This document shows, in pieces, positions 1 to 10,421 of a DNA stretch of 20,000 nucleotides (positions are counted from its first letter, which is position 1; each line of letters begins with the position of its first letter). Made by a program: the position numbers and the translations under genes. The notes below the pieces were generated by a model, which was given only the letters and a program-made list of their open reading frames with translations, made no database searches and was not told the DNA's origin. The stretch comes from an uncultured virus (IMG/VR IMGVR_UViG_3300012352_000177) (taxonomy: Duplodnaviria; Heunggongvirae; Uroviricota; Caudoviricetes; Crassvirales): the IMG/VR virus record IMGVR_UViG_3300012352_000177. One strand, 5' to 3'.

Positions 1-402
1 AAAGAGGCGGCTAATATGTTGGGTTATTTCTACTATGGAACACCTTCACAGATTCAAGCAGCAACAAGTTACTTTAAGGGAGTAGATCCATCAATCGTAG
101 GCATTAATCGTGCTAATGATAGGATTATTATTGAGAGAAAGAATGCTGATGGAGAGACAAGCTATAAAAGTATCTATATGCAGCAAGGAAGTAATAGATT
201 ATCTCAAAAAGAATTTATTCAAGCTGCATCACCTGAATTAGCAAAGATAAATGACATCTTTACAGGACTTGCTCAAGGAAGTTATGCTGAAGGTAAACCT
301 TTAAGTATTTACCAAGATAACCAAGGAAAGGGTACAATAATTAAAAACAGAACCGTAACAGGTGATGAGAACACTAATAAAGTAAACGCAGCACAATATT
401 AA
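1..402 (+). CDS. 3' part of a phage hypothetical protein (probably virion-associated), truncated by the window edge
   Basis: Frame is open from base 1 (AAA GAG GCG GCT AAT ATG) to TAA at 400-402, so the true start is probably upstream. It lies 11 bp before the giant gene on the same strand. Confidence 0.7.
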   Translation, partial: KEAANMLGYFYYGTPSQIQAATSYFKGVDPSIVGINRANDRIIIERKNADGETSYKSIYMQQGSNRLSQKEFIQAASPELAKINDIFTGLAQGSYAEGKPLSIYQDNQGKGTIIKNRTVTGDENTNKVNAAQY

Positions 403-413
403 TTAATTGTAAT

Positions 414-3400
414 ATGAACGAAAAAGCAATTCAAGACGCATATAAACTATTCAAGCAATCGGGTTATACAAAGAGCATTAATGAATTCAGAGTGCTCATG
501 AGTTCTAATCAAAATGCTGTAAATGATGCATATAAATTATTTAAGCAATCGGGATATACAAAAAGCGTAGATGACTTTAAAGTGCTCATGGGTTCAGGAG
601 CTCAAGTAAAAAAAAAACCTACTTCAGAATTGGATTCCAAATCGGGAAAACTTACTTCGGTTTCTTCTACCAATCAGAAAAGTAACGGAGAGTATACTTT
701 CCCGGGACAAACGGGAGTTAAGTTCAGGAAAGAAAACAATCAGTGGTATAGGAAAGATCCAACTGCTGCTGACTACATTGTAATTAAGGAGCCTGCTAGA
801 GTTAAAAACCTAGAGAAAAACGCTTTACAAACTACATCAAATACTAAACCAAAGGGGCAAGTTGGTATGGAGCAAGGATATCTTAAAAAGGGATATCAAA
901 AGATTAACAACAAGTACTACGATGGTAAAGGTGAGATATTCACCAACTATCCCGGAAAGGAAGGAAAAGCTTATAGATTCAGTAATGGTCAATGGTTTGA
1001 ACAAAGCCAATATATTGACGCAAAGAATGTACTTGCTAATGGTGAAGATATGAGCGTTACTGTATTGAAGTCCCCTATCAAGGACCCAATGCGTATAAAC
1101 GCCCTAAACAAACAATTCAAGAAATGGGGTACTTCTGAGAATGGAGTATTATTAGGATTCCCGGGTAAAGAACAGAACGAATACCGAGTTGTAAATAATC
1201 AATGGCAGAGAAGATCTCCTGAGAATAAGACTTGGGTAAATGTTACAAACCAAAACTCTGTAACAGCACTTAACGACTACTTCAAGAAACAAGTTAAGTT
1301 TGAACCTGAAAAAGTAGATAATCTTAAGCAAGATAACATATATTCTAAAAACTTTGACACCAATATTAAATCAATTAATTCATCATTAATTGGTGGAGAA
1401 GAAGAGAATGCTGTAGAGGTTCTTAGAAAGAAATTTCCTGCAGCAAATGGATGGTTATTTGAAGAGACAGGTGCAGGAGATAGAATAATAATTACTGCCC
1501 CGAATGGTCAGAAAGAAACATTTACTCTTGACAATTGGACTTGGGATGATGATAAGAGAAATGCACAGCAAATGATTGGATGGATGCAGGCTAATAATTT
1601 GGCTCCATCTGAGAAAGAAACTTATGATAGATATAAGAAAGCTACAGTTGCTCAAGGAGAAGGAGCAAAAGAAGAAGTAGAGACAATAGTACTACCGGGT
1701 GGTGGTTCTTTAAATATACAGCAGCCTGTTCTTAATAAAATGTATTTGAAAAATGAAGAGGTTGCAAGGCAGGCAAGAAATGAATGGATGCCTATTAAAA
1801 GTCAAAAGGTTCAAGATATAAAGTCTCAATATTCTGCATATATATCTGATAAGGGTGCTTTAGATAAGCATACTCAAGAAAGAGCTCAGGCAGCTCTTGG
1901 CGCATTAGCAGAAGATAAAGAGACAATAAGACAAGTTAATGCATATCAAAATGATATCAAATATAATATTGAGTCATTTAATAAAAAACAAAAAGAAGCT
2001 GAGCTATACGTAACAAGCTTAAACTCAAAGTTTTTAAATGGAGAGATAACAAAAGAAGATTTTGATTCTCAGTTAGGATCTAAACAGAAAGAACTATTAG
2101 ATCAAGAACAGGAAATAAAGAATCAAATTAAGTCATCTGATAACTTAACTAGAACAGCTAATATGGCTGCAGCAGAGAATTATCTTGTTCAGGAAACAAA
2201 AGGTAGTCTTGGAGGTGGTTTAACACTTAGCTTTATAAAAGGAATGGTTTCGCCCTTGAGATTAATTGAGGGTGCAATGGGAATGGATACAAGTGCATCT
2301 GCATGGCATAAACAAGTTACTGATGCAATAGCTCCGATTTGGGATTATGAGACATCACTTGAATACCTTCGTTCTGAAGAAAGACCTGACCTATATAAAT
2401 CAGCGTTCTCAGTAGCTGAATCACTAGGGGCAATGGCTCCTTTAATTGCATCAGGTGGTGCTACTTTGCTTGGAGAAAGTGCTTTAGCTACAGGTACAAT
2501 GACTGCAGCTGCGTTCTATCCTATGTCTTATTATGAGATGAAGGATGAACTTGAGAATATTGATATGCCTGAGGAAGATAAGATTGCTTTATCATCCGTA
2601 TATGGATTGGTATCATCTGCATTTGAATCCATAGGTATGGAGTATGCAATGGGTAAGGTAAGTACTCCTATTCAAACAGCTATAAAGAGAAACATACTAA
2701 AGAATGTTGTAGGTAAAGAGATACCTAAAAATGCTTCAAAGGAATATATTGATGCTCTTGTAAAGAGTGAGACCAAGGCATACGTTGCAAATTTAGTTGC
2801 AAGCACTGCAGGATCAATGGCTGTTGAGGGCGGAACTGAAGCTCTTCAAAGTTTATCAGGTGCCGGTATGAAAGAAATATATGACCGGTATAAAGGGAAT
2901 AATGAGCTATTTAATAATGAAGGATTACAAGGTGTAATGAAAGAAGCCCTTTACGAAGGGTACCTTGGTGCATTAGGTGGTGGTATGACGCATAGCGTTT
3001 ACATAGCATCTGATGCGGTAAAACGTGGTAAAGCATTAAACAGCAAGGAGCTTGGAATGCTCATGATGGCTGCTAAGACAGATGGTATGAGTGAGACACT
3101 TATGACCAACTTAAAGTCAGATATGTTAAATGGTCGTATTACAAAGACAGAGGCTGAAGAGATTGCTAATAACTTTCAAATGGTTCGTGGCAACATGGAA
3201 CAGATGCCTGAGAACTTAACACCTGAAGCGCAGTCTGTATCATTGAGCCTAATGATGGAGCGCGACAGACTAGATAAACAAGTCGCAGGGAAAGACCCGA
3301 ATCTCGTTAAGCCGCAGACAACGCGTATTGCTGAGATAAATAATCGTTTACAACAAATATCAGAAGAAAATGCCGTTCAAGAGCAAGCAACAGGTGAAGT

Positions 3401-6400
3401 TCCTGTACAGTCAGAAACCGGAGTTAGCGAAGAAGTGGCGGGAGGAGTATCCCAACCAACCACTGAACAAGTTACCACAGAAGGTGAGCAAGCTAAAACA
3501 GAGGTCGCTAAACAAGAAGAAAAAGTAGCTCCAAGTACTGAAGCTGAGTTAGACTTCGAGGTTACACCTGAGATTGATCAAGAGGCTGTTAACCTTGAGA
3601 AGCTATTGGCTGATGAGGGTATTACTATTGAGACACCTGTTACTGAGGCTCCTATAACAGAAGAGACTGTTACTGAGGAAGCTCCTGTAGCAGAGGCTCC
3701 TTTAGCAGAGGCTCCTGTAGTAGAAGAGACTGTTACTGAAACGCCAAATGTAGAAGTAGGTGGTATTGTAAGAGGTTATGAAACCATATCAGGAGAAGAA
3801 GCTGTAGGTGACGTAAGATCAAAGCTACCTAATCAAAACAATGGTACAGTTGTAATAGAAGGTCAAGATGGAAATCAATATGCCGTTGCGTTCTCAAGAA
3901 AAGGATCAGACGGTAAAAATATCTTTGAGCAAGGAACAACAACTCAACGTCCGGGATACATATCAGCATCTGTTAAGATTGATGAGAATGCTACACCTGA
4001 GCAGATACAAGTCGCTCAACAGGAAGCTCAGAGAAATCTAGAGATGATTCTACCGGCCGTTGTAAACGGGTCGATAAACACACAAGCTGTGAACGAGATC
4101 ATGGCACAACAAGCTGTTGCCCAACCATCCGGAGAAACCGGACAGTTGCCGGTTGCTGAGACAGCTGTGGTTGAAGAAGCTCCTGTAACTGAGACAGCTC
4201 CTGTAATTGAAGCAGCTCCTGCTAAAAAGCCAAAAGCTCCTAAGAAGTTAACTAAGAAGGAAGTACTTCAGAAATATAATGATTATATCGACTCATTGAT
4301 TAAGGATGAGAAAGAGAGATCAGATAGAAGAATTGCTCAGCTTGCTAACCAAAGAAACTCAGCTACAGGTCAAAGACGTACTGAGTTAACTCAGGAGATG
4401 CAAGACTTAGAGTTTGCATTCAAAGCTAAGAAACGTGGCTTAGAGAGCAAGAAAGACGACAAGCAAGCTGCAATTGATTTCAATGAGCAAGGAAATATTA
4501 AGCCTGCTGACATATTATTCCAACTTGACTCTAGCCAAGAGTCAGCTGATAAAAAGAAAGAGCTACTAGAAACAGCTACCGCAATGATGGAAGAGGCTGA
4601 GAAGGAAGGATTCTCTGAGACAGCTTTTACAGCAGAACAACCTGAACCACAGGTTGATTTGATTACTATTGATATTAAAGAGAATACGGAGCTAGCAGAT
4701 AAGGTACAAAGAATGGGTCTTTCTGAGCTTATTGGAAAGAAAATTAACCTTGTAATGGCAGATCAACTAAAGGTTGACAAAGGTCTTATGGGTGGACCTT
4801 TCTTTCCTTTAATTAATAAGCTATTCGGAAAGGTTGCATGGGCATCTATTAATGACACAGCCGCCATAAAGATTATCAACGGAGCAATTAAGTCTGACTA
4901 TACCGTGGTATATAACATGAACCCGGAAGCTATTGACTCTAATGTAGCAGTGCTTGACTCATTTGAAAGAAAGATTCAAGAGCTACCTAAGAAAATGCAA
5001 CAGCAAGTATTCACTGAGATTACTGAGTACTTAAATGAGAAGAAGTTTGGGGAGAAGACAGAGGAGATACAAAAGATAGCATCTGAGTCAAAGAACCTAA
5101 ATGACTTATTGGCTAAGCTAAATGAGTTAGATGTAGATACCATTGCTGCGGTTGTTAAGAGTGTACTACCATCAAAGACTGTTAACGCAGGAACTAAGAT
5201 TGGTGCTACACTTCAGTCTCAAAATATTAGTATTGAGGACATCAGAGCAGAGAACATCGAACAGTTTGTAGCGGACCTTCCTGCCGGAGCTTTGACTATG
5301 GTATTGCAGGTAACTGACAAGAATGGTAAAAAGGTAACTAAGCAGACAGCAAGAGAGGCTCTTATGAGTAGAGAACAGCAAAAAGCTGAGGGTCTACCTA
5401 TACATAAAAACTATCCTGTATACATTAGAGGTAAGGCAGTTGGTATCTTAAAAGAGACCACTCCTTTTTGGAATGTATTTAAGGATGCAATTAACGAGAT
5501 AAACGTAAAAGTTGCAGGTGTTGTTAAGCACTCTACAGGGAGAAACATAACATCAAAAGAGGCTCTATCTAATGAGATGAGAAGCGCGTCAATGACTGCT
5601 TCACAGGCGAGAAAAGTTTCTGAGCCAACGGTTGATATGTATCAGAAGTTTGTAAGCGTATTGTCTCGATCTATTCCGGGAGTAAATGTTGTTACATCTC
5701 AGAAAGAGTTCAATGACCTACTAGACAACTTAAACACTCAAAAGCTATCTACTAAAAACCAAAAGGTATATGGTGCTGTGTACAAGGGTAAGATTTATTT
5801 GAATCCATCACTACAGAACTACAACACACCTATCCATGAGTTTGGACATATTTGGCTTAATGTAGCTAAGACAGCAAATAAAGATCTATACAATAAAGGT
5901 ATTGACCTTATTAAAGGGTCTGAATATGTTGATCAGATTAAAAACAATAAAGACTATCAGCGTGTAACAAACGAGATGGCTAAGAATGGTGCTACTCAAG
6001 AGGAGATTGACAACTACATCTATGAGGAGGCACTAGCTACTGCAATTGGTGACAAGGGTGAGTCATTTGTTAAAGCATCTCAAGCTCTAAAAGATTTTAA
6101 GAGTTGGTTAGATAAGCTATACTCATTTGTAAGAAAGCTAACGGGTATATCTAAGTACACGCCTGAGCAGTTACAAGACATATCACTTGATGAGTTCTTA
6201 CAGGCTGTATCTGTAGACTTATTATCCGGAGAGAAGCTATTTGATGTGACCGAGGGTAGTATGTCCGATGCGCTTCAGTTAATGTCCAAGAGCAATAACA
6301 TATCTAAAATTATTGATGCAGCTAGGAAGAACAACATATCTGACCAAGCCATAAAGTTGGTATTGGCAAGAAAAGGTTTTGCTGTTTCTGATATAAACGA

Positions 6401-9400
6401 TGCATTTGATACTGCTATTCAAGCTGAAGAGAATTTAGCTGAGACGCTTGAAGGATATTCTGAGTTAATGTCTAAGGTTGATGCCATGATTGCCCGTCAA
6501 CAAAAGAGAAATACAGAGCCATCTAAAATCTCTAAGAACGTGGATGCACTTGTAAGAAAATCTGATGTATATCAAAATGCTACAGACTTACAAAAGAAAG
6601 CAATTGAGGCTAATACAAAGGCTAAGACAGGTACTAGACAAACAGTTGCTCCATCATACGGTAGAATTTTAGGTGCTGTTGGAGATATTGAAAACTTAAC
6701 CTCAAAAGAAAAAATAGCTATTGCTAATAGAATAGCCAAGTTAGCTAAAGATGCATCTGCTAACTTAGCAGATGAGATTAAAGACTTAGTTAAGTCAGGT
6801 AAAATTTCAGCCAAACAAATGGTAAGTGTATTTAACAGATTGAAATCTGTTAACTTACTAAATGAGGTATCAGTGATGAAATTCATTGACTACATGGCTA
6901 AGGTCTTTAATAACGCTGAGTATGCTCAACAAGTAAGTACAGCTAAATCATTACAGTCAAAGGTTAAGAATAACGCTAAGACTAAACTTGGTATTGCTAA
7001 CGACTTGATTTCTGAGATCCTTATAATGGCTTCTATTAACCCATCATTGATCCCATCTAAGGTGTTTAATACGTACTTGGAGACTATGAATATGCTTGGG
7101 CAAAGAACGGCTGTTCTAAAGCTTGAGGAGAGGGGAGAGCTTACGCAAAAGGTTGCTGACATTTTAGACGCAGTTAACGAGGAGTTATCTGTAGCTAGTG
7201 AAATGGCTGAACAGTTTGACAACTACGAGCAAAAAGAATTAAATAAGGAGGGTAAAGTAGACTTTGCTAAGACGTTGAAAAAAATGATAGACGATGGCAC
7301 CATCACGGAGGCTCAAGCTGACATAATGCGTAAGTACAAAGCAGAGATAGTTGATAGTGAGTCTACAAAGAAGACTGAGGAAGAGCTTGCTGAAGAGAAG
7401 AAGACTTTGCTTGGAGTTCTTAAAAAAGACGTTATAACTGATGAGGCTATTAAAGATTTACCATCAAGACTAGAGAGAGAATTAGCTAACTCAATTAAAT
7501 CATTACTTAAGACTGATGCTGTTAACAGATTGAATAACACTACATTAAAGAACTTATTAAAGTTAGTTGACAATATCAATAATGGCTTTGTTCCTCACTA
7601 CGCAGAGAAAATGAAGGAGAGATTGAATGCTATTAATAGCTCATCTATATTATCATCTTCTGTTAAAAAAGCGAATCCACTTAGAGTAAGCACTGTATTA
7701 AGTAAGATTAAAGCATTCTTTACTGAGAAGTATACAAAAAGAGATTATGTTCTAGATATGGAACGTAGTATTTCTTTAGCAAATATTGATCAGGTTTTTG
7801 GTGATTTTAAGACAGAGAATATATCAGAGTCAATGTTTGAACCATCTAGAAAAGCACAAGCTGCATTTGAAACAATGTTTAAAAAGGCTCAAGATAAGTT
7901 AGAGAAAGCAAGAAGAGATGTGTTTATTTCTTTAGGTAAGAATTCAAATAAAACAATTATGTCTGATTTTAAGATAATGACATATTTGTTGCAACTTGAA
8001 AGTAATTCAAATCCTAACAGTAAGCAAGTAAACAATGCTGTTGACTTTATCAATGCAACAATAGCTCAAATTAATCGAAAAAAATCAGCTAACTATACAA
8101 ACAAAGATGCTAAGTTCTTAAATGAGATATTAGATAAATATACTAATCAAAGATCTTTAGAGAATAAGTATGGTAAGCCGTATGGAAAATTTACTTCAGA
8201 AGAAAAGGCTAGTGTTGAGTTGGATATTAATAAGATCTATAACTCATTTAACTCAGCAGAAAAAGCTTCTATTAAAACTATTCAGGAAGTAAATGACTCT
8301 ATGACTGAGAAGGCTGTATACACAGCAGGAATCATTCGAGGTGATAAGATTAATCCAATTGCTGATTATGTTCCTCATATTGTAACAAAAGACATTTTAC
8401 CGGGTGAAGAGATTTCAGGAGCAAGTGATGTAAATAACTTTAATAACTCAAGAAAGCCATCTACTAAGGCTAGTAACTTAGTAGAGCGTACGGGTACTGT
8501 CACAGCAATTAGCTTTGATCCATATAAATCTACATCTAATGCAACAAAGAATGTATTATTAGATTTCTATATGACTGAGCCTATCAGGACGGCAAGGATG
8601 ACAATCAATGAGACGCGTAAGAGACTAGAGGATGATGGTATTACTGAGCAACAAAATTTATTTTTAAATGCTATTGAAAATGCATTTGAGGAAGCTACAA
8701 AGAATGTATTACAAACTAACTTCCAACAAGACGAGATACTAAGTAAAGCGGCTAGTATTATTACAAAAGCCGGATATAGATCTTTGCTAGGAACAAGTAC
8801 AGTTCGTACTGCATCAGAGCTATTATCTAACATGAGTGCTGTTGCATTGATGGAAGGAAAAGCATTTCTAAAAGGAGTATCCAAAGAATTAAGGAAATAC
8901 ACCAATCCGGAAGAAGGACTTGAAATCATGATAAACAGTGGTTCAAATGCACCTCAACGAGTATTTGGAGGAAGTACTCAAGGTGGTATGTTTATTGATC
9001 CTGCTATTGCAAATAGCGCAGTTGGTATGAAAGATTCAGCTGCAAAAACAAAGCTAGAGAATACAATGCAAATGATCTATAATAGATCACTTAAGCACCC
9101 TGTTAATTGGATTGAGACTACATCAGATGTAATGATGTCAGCTCCTGATATTATTGTAACAAGACCAACATGGTTTGGTGCATATGCTAATGAGTTTAAG
9201 AAGGTAGCAGGAAAGGATGTAGACTTTGATAAGATTAAGGCTAACGATGAGGCGTACATGAATGAGAATAAGGATGCCATTGAAGCTGCAACAAAGAAAG
9301 CAGATAAGGCTGTATTCAAGTTGAGTGCTACGAATAATCCTTACATGGGTATATTGAGAAATAATATCTCACCTGACTCAAAAGGTATAGCTAAGACTAT

Positions 9401-10421
9401 TAAGATATTTGATAACTACTTGACTCGATTTACTATATATGAGTATACTAATGCTCGTACTGCAATCTATGCACTAGCAGGACAAGGTATGATCAGTAAG
9501 ACAGAGGCTACATTATTATTAGCAGGTGTAACTACTCGTATGATTACTTACTCATTACTATTAAAAGTATTAGGTAGTTCTTTATTAGGATTGTTTATGG
9601 GTGGAGATGATGAGGATGACGATAAGAGCTTCATGCAAAAACTTGGTCAGTCAGGAGCATCAGCAGCAACAACCTTATTACTTGGTAGAAACTTTGGTAA
9701 CATTATGAGAAATGCAATGGGATATGGTGCTGAGCAATTCAATAAGAACTATCTTACATTACTAAGAGAAGGTGACTACGATGCATACGAGGATGCTATT
9801 CAATACACGATATTGCCTCAAGAGAAGAAACAAGACATGGGTCAAGGTATGGAGCTATTTGATATATATCAAAATATGCTAGGACCTTCAGGACCTTTTA
9901 TAAAGTCACTTGATTACTCACTTAGAAAATTAACTGAGGCAGATCGAGTTGCTCCGAAAGCAAGTGACAGCGATGCTGTTAAGAAGAAAAGGATGGAGGC
10001 TGTAACTAGACAGCAGAGGGAGAGAAACATTCGTGTTCCATTAGAACTTACAGGTACGTTAGGATTTGTACCATTCTATAAAGATATAAGAAAGGTAGTC
10101 AATGAGATGATCTACGCTGATCTTAAGAAGTCTCTTAAAGAACAAGAGGCTAATAAGAAAAAGAAAGAGGAGATGTTGATGGGTTATGAGAGTAAGTCTG
10201 ACATGGAGGAAAACAATCCTAAGCTTTACGAAAGACTTTACGACAAAGGTGGTAAGTATTATGCTGAAGAGGAGATTAGGTTAGCTAATGAGAACCTAAA
10301 AAATCAACTAAGGGATATTGAAAAGAAACGTAAAAGCGGTACTATATCACCTTCGAAAGCTGCAACCTTAAAGAGAAGAGAGAAAAGAAAGGCAACTGTA
10401 AGGATAAGAAGAGCAAGATAA
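414..10421 (+). CDS. Giant (3335 aa) polyvalent phage protein, probable internal virion/DNA-ejection protein with a zincin-like metallopeptidase domain
   Basis: 10-kb uninterrupted ORF with an AT-rich start context. Motif LNP..NTPIHEFGHIW (HEFGH at 5835-5849) with downstream EEALA (6024-6038). Also Gly/Ala-rich amphipathic helices (~2200-3000), an acidic Pro/Glu/Thr linker and a hydrophobic segment near the C-terminus. The ejection role is inferred from size and architecture. Confidence 0.85.
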   Translation: MNEKAIQDAYKLFKQSGYTKSINEFRVLMSSNQNAVNDAYKLFKQSGYTKSVDDFKVLMGSGAQVKKKPTSELDSKSGKLTSVSSTNQKSNGEYTFPGQTGVKFRKENNQWYRKDPTAADYIVIKEPARVKNLEKNALQTTSNTKPKGQVGMEQGYLKKGYQKINNKYYDGKGEIFTNYPGKEGKAYRFSNGQWFEQSQYIDAKNVLANGEDMSVTVLKSPIKDPMRINALNKQFKKWGTSENGVLLGFPGKEQNEYRVVNNQWQRRSPENKTWVNVTNQNSVTALNDYFKKQVKFEPEKVDNLKQDNIYSKNFDTNIKSINSSLIGGEEENAVEVLRKKFPAANGWLFEETGAGDRIIITAPNGQKETFTLDNWTWDDDKRNAQQMIGWMQANNLAPSEKETYDRYKKATVAQGEGAKEEVETIVLPGGGSLNIQQPVLNKMYLKNEEVARQARNEWMPIKSQKVQDIKSQYSAYISDKGALDKHTQERAQAALGALAEDKETIRQVNAYQNDIKYNIESFNKKQKEAELYVTSLNSKFLNGEITKEDFDSQLGSKQKELLDQEQEIKNQIKSSDNLTRTANMAAAENYLVQETKGSLGGGLTLSFIKGMVSPLRLIEGAMGMDTSASAWHKQVTDAIAPIWDYETSLEYLRSEERPDLYKSAFSVAESLGAMAPLIASGGATLLGESALATGTMTAAAFYPMSYYEMKDELENIDMPEEDKIALSSVYGLVSSAFESIGMEYAMGKVSTPIQTAIKRNILKNVVGKEIPKNASKEYIDALVKSETKAYVANLVASTAGSMAVEGGTEALQSLSGAGMKEIYDRYKGNNELFNNEGLQGVMKEALYEGYLGALGGGMTHSVYIASDAVKRGKALNSKELGMLMMAAKTDGMSETLMTNLKSDMLNGRITKTEAEEIANNFQMVRGNMEQMPENLTPEAQSVSLSLMMERDRLDKQVAGKDPNLVKPQTTRIAEINNRLQQISEENAVQEQATGEVPVQSETGVSEEVAGGVSQPTTEQVTTEGEQAKTEVAKQEEKVAPSTEAELDFEVTPEIDQEAVNLEKLLADEGITIETPVTEAPITEETVTEEAPVAEAPLAEAPVVEETVTETPNVEVGGIVRGYETISGEEAVGDVRSKLPNQNNGTVVIEGQDGNQYAVAFSRKGSDGKNIFEQGTTTQRPGYISASVKIDENATPEQIQVAQQEAQRNLEMILPAVVNGSINTQAVNEIMAQQAVAQPSGETGQLPVAETAVVEEAPVTETAPVIEAAPAKKPKAPKKLTKKEVLQKYNDYIDSLIKDEKERSDRRIAQLANQRNSATGQRRTELTQEMQDLEFAFKAKKRGLESKKDDKQAAIDFNEQGNIKPADILFQLDSSQESADKKKELLETATAMMEEAEKEGFSETAFTAEQPEPQVDLITIDIKENTELADKVQRMGLSELIGKKINLVMADQLKVDKGLMGGPFFPLINKLFGKVAWASINDTAAIKIINGAIKSDYTVVYNMNPEAIDSNVAVLDSFERKIQELPKKMQQQVFTEITEYLNEKKFGEKTEEIQKIASESKNLNDLLAKLNELDVDTIAAVVKSVLPSKTVNAGTKIGATLQSQNISIEDIRAENIEQFVADLPAGALTMVLQVTDKNGKKVTKQTAREALMSREQQKAEGLPIHKNYPVYIRGKAVGILKETTPFWNVFKDAINEINVKVAGVVKHSTGRNITSKEALSNEMRSASMTASQARKVSEPTVDMYQKFVSVLSRSIPGVNVVTSQKEFNDLLDNLNTQKLSTKNQKVYGAVYKGKIYLNPSLQNYNTPIHEFGHIWLNVAKTANKDLYNKGIDLIKGSEYVDQIKNNKDYQRVTNEMAKNGATQEEIDNYIYEEALATAIGDKGESFVKASQALKDFKSWLDKLYSFVRKLTGISKYTPEQLQDISLDEFLQAVSVDLLSGEKLFDVTEGSMSDALQLMSKSNNISKIIDAARKNNISDQAIKLVLARKGFAVSDINDAFDTAIQAEENLAETLEGYSELMSKVDAMIARQQKRNTEPSKISKNVDALVRKSDVYQNATDLQKKAIEANTKAKTGTRQTVAPSYGRILGAVGDIENLTSKEKIAIANRIAKLAKDASANLADEIKDLVKSGKISAKQMVSVFNRLKSVNLLNEVSVMKFIDYMAKVFNNAEYAQQVSTAKSLQSKVKNNAKTKLGIANDLISEILIMASINPSLIPSKVFNTYLETMNMLGQRTAVLKLEERGELTQKVADILDAVNEELSVASEMAEQFDNYEQKELNKEGKVDFAKTLKKMIDDGTITEAQADIMRKYKAEIVDSESTKKTEEELAEEKKTLLGVLKKDVITDEAIKDLPSRLERELANSIKSLLKTDAVNRLNNTTLKNLLKLVDNINNGFVPHYAEKMKERLNAINSSSILSSSVKKANPLRVSTVLSKIKAFFTEKYTKRDYVLDMERSISLANIDQVFGDFKTENISESMFEPSRKAQAAFETMFKKAQDKLEKARRDVFISLGKNSNKTIMSDFKIMTYLLQLESNSNPNSKQVNNAVDFINATIAQINRKKSANYTNKDAKFLNEILDKYTNQRSLENKYGKPYGKFTSEEKASVELDINKIYNSFNSAEKASIKTIQEVNDSMTEKAVYTAGIIRGDKINPIADYVPHIVTKDILPGEEISGASDVNNFNNSRKPSTKASNLVERTGTVTAISFDPYKSTSNATKNVLLDFYMTEPIRTARMTINETRKRLEDDGITEQQNLFLNAIENAFEEATKNVLQTNFQQDEILSKAASIITKAGYRSLLGTSTVRTASELLSNMSAVALMEGKAFLKGVSKELRKYTNPEEGLEIMINSGSNAPQRVFGGSTQGGMFIDPAIANSAVGMKDSAAKTKLENTMQMIYNRSLKHPVNWIETTSDVMMSAPDIIVTRPTWFGAYANEFKKVAGKDVDFDKIKANDEAYMNENKDAIEAATKKADKAVFKLSATNNPYMGILRNNISPDSKGIAKTIKIFDNYLTRFTIYEYTNARTAIYALAGQGMISKTEATLLLAGVTTRMITYSLLLKVLGSSLLGLFMGGDDEDDDKSFMQKLGQSGASAATTLLLGRNFGNIMRNAMGYGAEQFNKNYLTLLREGDYDAYEDAIQYTILPQEKKQDMGQGMELFDIYQNMLGPSGPFIKSLDYSLRKLTEADRVAPKASDSDAVKKKRMEAVTRQQRERNIRVPLELTGTLGFVPFYKDIRKVVNEMIYADLKKSLKEQEANKKKKEEMLMGYESKSDMEENNPKLYERLYDKGGKYYAEEEIRLANENLKNQLRDIEKKRKSGTISPSKAATLKRREKRKATVRIRRAR
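426..590 (+). repeat. Tandem 30-codon duplication at the N-terminus of the giant protein
   Basis: AIQDAYKLFKQSGYTKSINEFRVLM (426-500) versus AVNDAYKLFKQSGYTKSVDDFKVLM (516-590), with many synonymous differences. Confidence 0.95.
608..685 (+). other. A10 slippery run plus -1 frame extension (candidate programmed frameshift or transcriptional slippage site)
   Basis: GT-AAAAAAAAAA-CC (A run 608-617). The -1 frame reads KKKTYFRIGFQIGKTYFGFFYQSEK* (TAA 683-685) and has no start codon after the upstream TAA at 578-580. Confidence 0.55.
699..1289 (+). repeat. Three diverged protein repeats [FY]PG..x.[FY]R..N[NG]QW ... L(N/E)
   Basis: FPGQTGVKFRKENNQW..IKEPARVKNLEK (699), YPGKEGKAYRFSNGQW..IKDPMRINALNKQFKK (948) and FPGKEQNEYRVVNNQW..VTALNDYFKK (1158). 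Confidence 0.85.
3370..3528 (+). CDS. Nested +1-frame small basic protein (52 aa) MPFKSKQQVKFLYSQKPELAKKWREEYPNQPLNKLPQKVSKLKQRSLNKKKK
   Basis: Hand translation: ATG at 3370 in an A-rich context (CAGAAGAAAATG), TAG at 3526-3528. It matches my recollection of a small phage hypothetical-protein pattern MPFKS..Q..(F/Y)LY...PE.A.KW......LP.KV. It is shorter than any ORF listed in the track. Confidence 0.75.
   Translation: MPFKSKQQVKFLYSQKPELAKKWREEYPNQPLNKLPQKVSKLKQRSLNKKKK
3681..3725 (+). repeat. 15-bp tandem repeats in the acidic linker (APVAE/APLAE/APVVE)
   Basis: GCTCCTGTAGCAGAG GCTCCTTTAGCAGAG GCTCCTGTAGTAGAA. GAAGAGACTGTTACTGA also occurs on both sides (3660, 3723). Confidence 0.9.

Follow-up and report, generated by a model that had tools for sequence, protein, structure and literature searches.

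Recoding by slippage is well known, and the dnaX gene of Thermus thermophilus (tau/gamma) is among the closest described systems to the one presented here. As summarised in the recoding literature, dnaX carries its full-length product in one open reading frame (ORF), a run of 9 A/T makes RNA polymerase add bases, and a truncated isoform keeps the same N-terminus and closes with a short end in an alternative frame. Passages of a recoding review state that bacterial RNA polymerase slips efficiently on 9 A/T, with an RNA-DNA hybrid of 9-10 bp, and that such a run in Thermus dnaX yields about half truncated product; an abstract places the requirement for bacterial polymerase slippage at no fewer than 7 T, and at more A. 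Here we analyse 20,000 nucleotides of the uncultured Crassvirales record IMGVR_UViG_3300012352_000177 from IMG/VR, a stretch referred to at its full length as the window, in which a run of ten A (A10) lies early in the ORF of a giant protein of 3335 amino acids (aa). We consider it very probable, on the evidence of sequence comparison, that the A10 is a programmed recoding site and that the -1 frame product to which it would give rise, by either the polymerase or the ribosome, is a selected product.

As in T. thermophilus dnaX, the unshifted product is encoded in one ORF, and the proposed short isoform would keep its N-terminus and end in another frame. The locus differs from dnaX in that the gene encodes a giant phage virion protein rather than a replicase subunit, that the slip would take place about 65 codons from the start and would thus leave a tiny short form, and that the alternative-frame tail carries a conserved motif of 16-47 aa instead of just a nearby stop. 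The -1 sites of Escherichia coli dnaX and of IS elements (A_AAA_AAG or G_GGA_AAG with a 3' structure) resemble those relatives of our locus that lack the run and carry G_GGA_AAG with a hairpin 5-7 nt downstream, whereas the A10 of the window has neither an AAG nor a nearby structure. For E. coli, passages of a review report that A_AAA_AAG shifts much better than A_AAA_AAA and that G_GGA_AAG is highly shift-prone. Taken together, the dnaX genes of E. coli and Thermus use either a ribosomal heptamer or a homopolymer, and so do the relatives described below.

In phage lambda, the tail assembly chaperone pair G/GT uses G_GGA_AAG. A review names the same heptamer for some g-t sites and describes the system: ribosomes shift by -1 in a gene expressed late, which adjoins or overlaps the gene of a very long virion protein, and the two products share their N-terminus and are made in a fixed proportion. 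In arrangement this resembles our locus. In G/GT, however, the shift adds a whole C-terminal domain and takes place between two overlapping ORFs upstream of the tape-measure gene of long-tailed phages, whereas here it would truncate the product to 90 aa from within the giant ORF; the window site thus shows neither two ORFs upstream of a tape measure nor a C-terminal extension. A further difference is that the names of the cultured relatives contain the 'P' of podoviruses (vB_FspP), or the record they belong to is titled Podoviridae sp. Published accounts of type III secretion genes in Shigella (spa13 and others) and of potyvirus P3N-PIPO also describe polymerase slippage on short A/T runs with a functional trans-frame product, but the polymerases, run lengths and products are others, with extensions or a new domain there and a 22-residue hairpin here.

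The A10 run and its conservation

The features on which the analysis rests are as follows (window positions).

414..10421, + strand: giant ORF, 3335 aa, the unshifted product and last gene of the virion-structural block; its C-terminal part matches phrog_32588
417..590, + strand: N-terminal module of two tandem 28-residue units (417-500 and 507-590; aa 2-29 and 32-59), common to both proposed isoforms
608..617, + strand: A10 homopolymer, the proposed slip site, codon phase 2
617..685, + strand: -1 frame tail, 22 codons and the stop at 683-685; would need one extra A in the mRNA or a -1 shift of the ribosome
581..685, + strand: -1 frame from stop to stop, 34 codons, without a start codon
618..683, + strand: linker of Ser, Thr and Lys in the 0 frame of the giant protein; the tail ORF overlaps it
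619..783, + strand: +1 frame tail, 54 codons and a stop; would need one A fewer or two more; not conserved

Positions 606-620 read GTA AAA AAA AAA CCT, so that the A10 is in frame in the giant ORF, 65 codons from its start and right behind the two tandem units; an earlier note made from the letters of the window had placed it behind a duplicated N-terminal domain, which the sequence bears out. The run lies inside an ORF and reaches the length of at least 9 A/T expected of slippage sites, and it contains the in-phase heptamer A_AAA_AAA. It is also the sole run of at least 9 A or T in the window. Chance alone would give 0.38 A10 runs where one is observed, and 48 of 200 shuffled sequences held at least one. 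The A10 in this window alone is not significant; its significance rests on conservation in relatives.

From position 617 the -1 frame reads TYFRIGFQIGKTYFGFFYQSEK. Upstream it is closed at 581, nine codons before the run, and ATG, GTG and TTG are absent from the whole of 581-685, in agreement with the claim that the tail lacks a start codon of its own. The +1 frame is open to a stop at 781-783 and was rightly called less patterned: the +1 tails of relatives, 18-78 aa long, share no common motif. As for the 0-frame linker, its description as Ser/Thr/Lys stands but 'featureless' does not, as the linker carries a shadow of the -1 motif. Most transcripts and ribosomes would read straight through the A10 to give the 3335-aa virion protein, and a fraction would end in the -1 frame to give a short isoform of 90 aa, composed of residues 1-68 of the giant protein (tandem module plus KKK) and a 22-residue cationic aromatic/Gly tail predicted to form a beta-hairpin.

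Relatives' DNA was fetched by means of peptide patterns far downstream of the site, which gave 43 viral and 65 metagenome loci and, with the window, 109 sources. A run of A9-A11 occupies the junction in 92 of them; 16 lack the site and one lacks the N-terminus. The 72 distinct site sequences comprise 65 with A10, five with A9 and two with A11, and 71 of them keep the giant protein in frame. The codon phase varies (xxA AAA AAA AAA at 40 distinct sites, AAA AAA AAA Axx at 25, xAA AAA AAA AAA at two), the tenth A being supplied by the codon before or the codon after the lysines. The KKK of the site is encoded entirely by AAA in 31 of 31 loci (the first non-duplicate ones), compared to 2 of the 57 other KKK triplets in the same ORFs, where AAA makes up a share of 0.644 of the Lys codons. 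The run is hence kept against synonymous drift in homologues, as would be expected of a slippage site, and the check proposed in the earlier note, whether homologues always encode the KKK by poly-A or break it with AAG, came out in favour of the site. In a full-length alignment of 38 homologues only seven columns are invariant, K67 and K68 among them. The A10 of the Elemovirus giant gene encodes E-K-K-N and not KKK, which argues that it is the length of the run that is kept and not the lysines.

The N-terminal module in front of the run matches only unnamed small viral clusters in the Protein Atlas. Across loci L001-L160, the run (window 602-617) marks the exact point at which one N-terminal module is exchanged for another. 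One relative (L154, 2501-2899) carries the module and an A10, and its 0-frame ORF ends after 132 aa and is not a giant gene.

The overlapping -1 frame tail

Behind every run lies a -1 tail of 16-47 aa, cationic and of aromatic/Gly character. The 64 distinct tails have net charges of +5 to +11 and keep an approximate motif, [aromatic]-G-h-x-h, turn, h-h-G-h, so that a second proposed check, whether an aromatic/Gly tail is conserved in the -1 frame without early stops, also turned out positive. Three Gly columns stand out, occupied in 30, 25 and 30 of 31 sequences. The entropy of the third codon position in these columns amounts to 1.82-1.93 bits, compared to 0.2-0.95 bits at positions 1 and 2, and all four codons are used (GGA/GGC/GGT/GGG counts of 10/8/8/4, 9/6/2/8 and 10/9/9/2), while the 0-frame residue overlapping the conserved -1 Gly varies between A, V, E, G and D in the 31 loci. 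The free Gly wobble together with a varying 0-frame residue is likewise seen across the 64 distinct tails. As Gly uses all GGN codons while the overlapping 0-frame residue varies, selection appears to act on the -1 frame; selection on the 0 frame alone would not fix the G at its own wobble position and yet leave its second codon position free. We conclude from this codon pattern that the -1 frame is coding and under selection.

When a profile of the tail was run against 35,940 six-frame segments, it matched the site only, apart from two marginal matches elsewhere. Upstream of the run a stop closes the -1 frame at a distance of 0-19 codons, and a start codon (ATG, GTG or TTG) is absent in 29 of the 31 loci. 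One clade, whose run has decayed to A7, has its -1 frame closed after nine codons. AlphaFold2 modelling of the -1 ORF of the window alone, with 30 relatives in the alignment, predicts a beta-hairpin with strands at residues 14-21 and 24-31 and a mean predicted local distance difference test (pLDDT) score of 73; two ten-residue blocks that cover most of the hairpin average 77 and 88. The model, at moderate confidence, agrees with the beta-hairpin-like tail that had been proposed from the letters.

Related loci and cultured phages

A profile search with the -1 ORFs retrieved nine gene-called proteins of 67-104 aa (P0081-P0083 and P0085-P0090) in which module, KKK and tail lie in one frame. These may come from A11 genomes, may be assembly variants or may be stand-alone genes. 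Searches of PHROGs and Pfam with the nine proteins returned only matches of the N-terminal module (phrog_32588, phrog_24532), plus a match to crAss001_48 below threshold. The relatives of two of these proteins added 37 loci, of which 32 carry A9-A11, two are cut off, and three have the tail without a run; the latter hold an in-phase G_GGA_AAG (two loci) or A_AAT_TTT (one locus) inside an open -1 window. Among shorter proteins with the N-terminal module, four matches were found, one of them an A9 variant (P0079) and none with the tail.

A scan of viral contigs with a tail-coding DNA motif, which favours one tail type and overlaps the earlier locus sets, yielded 80 loci out of at least 119 matches, 57 of them with an extended tail motif. 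These 57 loci carry A9-A11 (27), G_GGA_AAG (16), G_GGA_AAY (3), A_AAT_TTT (2), other heptamers (2) or no slip signal (7, one of them truncated). The heptamer loci have a GC-rich hairpin downstream, in many of them starting 5-7 nt away, with a mean z of -1.65 and 8 of 20 loci below -2; this class of relatives thus has the downstream stimulatory structure of ribosomal frameshift sites. At the A-run loci the corresponding mean z is -0.18, with 2 of 31 below -2 and the window at -0.35, and no stimulatory structure of the kind expected for ribosomal frameshifting is consistent near the run across the 31 loci.

The long ORFs of two run-less loci (L159, L160) gave no significant BLASTP match to the giant protein (best E values 1.7 and 0.025), and the cassette of module, slip signal and tail seems to head different long genes. 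Run-less loci within L162-L240 (e.g. L169, L181, L182, L183) have a -1 spacer of 20-35 codons, rich in Arg, Cys and Gly, before the same GRWF[IF]G tail.

The site also occurs in cultured phages. An A10 with a cationic aromatic/Gly -1 tail was found in Flavobacterium phages elemoF and elemoD, Tenacibaculum phage Gundel_1 and Cellulophaga phages phi38:1 (nt 99-108 of gp101) and Calle_3, and in the uncultured phage MW202828.1 the run is A11, in frame and followed by a -1 tail. The records of four Cellulophaga phages, phi46:3, phi18:3, phi19:3 and phi13:2, have an A9, and the gene is annotated as an ORF of about 100 aa plus a giant ORF. In these records (L049 at 21119-25758, L050, L051 and L052), an A10 would fuse the two ORFs and an A11 would give the tail. 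Either the homopolymer was undercalled in these records or the giant protein truly depends on slippage, and the run appears to have caused the split-gene annotation. A search for independent relatives of the A9 Cellulophaga phages returned only the same four isolates. Among the Elemovirus records listed, seven linear ones (e.g. MT497111.1, MT497085.1) begin at the first base of the A10, query residue 80 corresponding to record position 68-69, and these starts may represent an assembly break at the homopolymer.

Mechanism, alternatives and significance

We lean towards recoding at the A10 through slippage of RNA polymerase, which would add one A to the mRNA on the run as in T. thermophilus dnaX. 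This route is favoured for the A-run class since the run exceeds the need of a heptamer, never ends in AAG and has no stimulator nearby. For the heptamer class we favour ribosomal frameshifting, which would be the same split as in dnaX. That slippage occurs and that the product is made we infer from sequence, and likewise the rate, the polymerase route and the role of the short isoform. As a guess, the short isoform would be a docking-module protein, anchored or oligomerised by its hairpin, and the slip rate would determine how much of it is made relative to the giant protein. Recoding as proposed in the earlier note is supported by the conservation of the run and by the selection on the -1 frame.

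Several observations weigh against a selected recoding product or against the polymerase as its source. A Ser/Thr-rich 0 frame with T at the wobble tends by itself towards a Phe/Tyr-rich -1 frame, conservation at the hydrophobic columns is apparent in the 0 frame as well as in the -1 frame (Ser in 25-26 of 31), and in mean pairwise identity the -1 frame exceeds the 0 frame by a modest margin (0.383 vs 0.324), a comparison of 294 with 167 pairs in an alignment built on the -1 frame. The tail profile misses the tails of cultured phages, where the likeness lies in composition and partial motifs only. The site is absent from 16 of the 108 sources in which the N-terminus is covered, so that the giant protein can do without it, and the nine small proteins with module and tail in one frame may be A11 assembly variants. 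Finally, relatives with the same tail use classical ribosomal heptamers and a downstream hairpin. This last point speaks for a route that is possible, if less likely than slippage of the polymerase, in which the same product would be made from unedited mRNA by ribosomes that shift -1 on A_AAA_AAA or slide on poly-A. An A10 contains an in-phase A_AAA_AAA in every codon phase, and sliding of ribosomes on iterated AAA codons has been reported (eLife 2015); an A7 would suffice for such a shift, however, whereas relatives maintain 9-11 A in every codon phase, with no conserved stimulatory structure next to the run.

Two explanations in which no transcript or ribosome slips have to be set beside these. 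The run length might change during replication, so that the giant gene would be switched on and off in subpopulations and the tail would come only from A11 genomes. The four Cellulophaga records with an A9 and a split-gene annotation would fit this phase variation, as would one metagenome contig with an out-of-frame A9 (L079/P0079) and the nine small module-tail proteins in the protein library, but the giant protein is in frame at 71 of the 72 distinct sites, undercalling of the homopolymer may account for the A9 records, and two contigs cross the run without an indel (from two DNA runs; contigs cannot show rare variants). Phase variation at the DNA level is also improbable in that selection on the tail could hardly be maintained through phase-variant genomes, as genomes without the giant virion protein should be defective. 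Alternatively, nothing would be recoded, KKK and linker being a conserved junction or recombination joint for module swapping and the -1 ORF arising incidentally from conservation of the 0 frame and of the nucleotides. The 15 module clusters and 15 tail clusters do form a mosaic, in which 6 of the 15 module clusters are found with two or more tail clusters; homology to contigs of relatives breaks off exactly at 602/607, as these align only up to 602 or only from 607; and the Ser-rich 0 frame casts its aromatic shadow into the -1 frame. We nonetheless judge this account very unlikely, for it leaves unexplained why the GGN wobble is free while the 0-frame wobble before it is fixed as G, the presence of an A10 where there is no KKK, the avoidance of all-AAA KKK elsewhere (2 of 57), the joint loss of tail and run, and the in-phase G_GGA_AAG with a hairpin in run-less loci. 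More speculatively, the homopolymer could be a three-way expression node as well as a universal joint for module swapping, giving the giant, the hairpin-tailed 90-aa and the +1 products in a fixed series; the A9 of the four Cellulophaga phages would then be genuine in the genome and their giant protein would come only from slipped mRNA, and the hairpin, membrane-active or assembly-nucleating, would be shared by otherwise unrelated long phage genes. This broader scheme we regard as doubtful. If it were true, the A9 Cellulophaga giant virion protein would need an obligatory transcript 'editing' of an essential structural gene.

The surroundings of the site are those of a phage. The N-terminal 420 residues of the giant protein have 74 homologues of 1834-5837 aa, and in relatives the giant gene follows that of a virion structural protein of 1550 aa (phrog_14478). 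In cultured phages the relatives of the giant protein are annotated as structural protein, in the case of phi18:3 gp123 from tandem mass spectrometry (MS/MS). On its minus strand the window encodes a SNF2-type helicase, a primase-like protein, a DnaA-C-like helix-turn-helix (HTH) protein and a PDDEXK nuclease; altogether it looks like phage DNA. Among GenBank records MW202828.1 comes nearest, with 76.5% identity in the primase, and parts of the window are present in DNA metagenomes labelled freshwater and estuary. A blastn search of window 1-3000 against the phage collection gave no match, and a scan of genome contigs for relatives found none.

Within the giant protein, a HEFGH (zincin-like) motif lies at aa 1808-1812 (window 5835-5849), and the region around it, aa 1664-2002, is the only one that matches other phages by tblastn (Tenacibaculum phage Gundel_1 gp074 and MW202828.1). 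Its N-terminal part contains repeated [YF]PGKE...Y[RK][FV] motifs at window 948-980 and 1158-1190 (YPGKEGKAYRF, FPGKEQNEYRV). Some homologues have a precomputed MORN_2 match (PF07661). A Pfam match to DUF3364 in the giant protein scored 17.1 bits, below the cut-off of 27.4, and was treated as chance. Upstream of the giant gene, contigs from two DNA runs carry a six-base insertion, AATAAA, behind position 375, in frame near the end of the ORF at 16..402.

We know of few cases of recoding in phages outside tail-chaperone and capsid genes. No paper describing this site was found in full-text literature searches, and Flavobacter-, Cellulophaga and Bacteroidetes go unmentioned in a 2016 recoding review. 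Judged by its conservation, the site is very probably a previously unannotated programmed recoding site within a known kind of system. It is spread over dozens of freshwater and marine phage lineages and is unannotated in cultured model phages of Cellulophaga, Flavobacterium and Tenacibaculum, whose genomes would thereby gain a small, hidden protein that ends in a conserved hairpin. The family furthermore lets homopolymer and heptamer slip signals that lead into the same trans-frame peptide be compared in nature, side by side.

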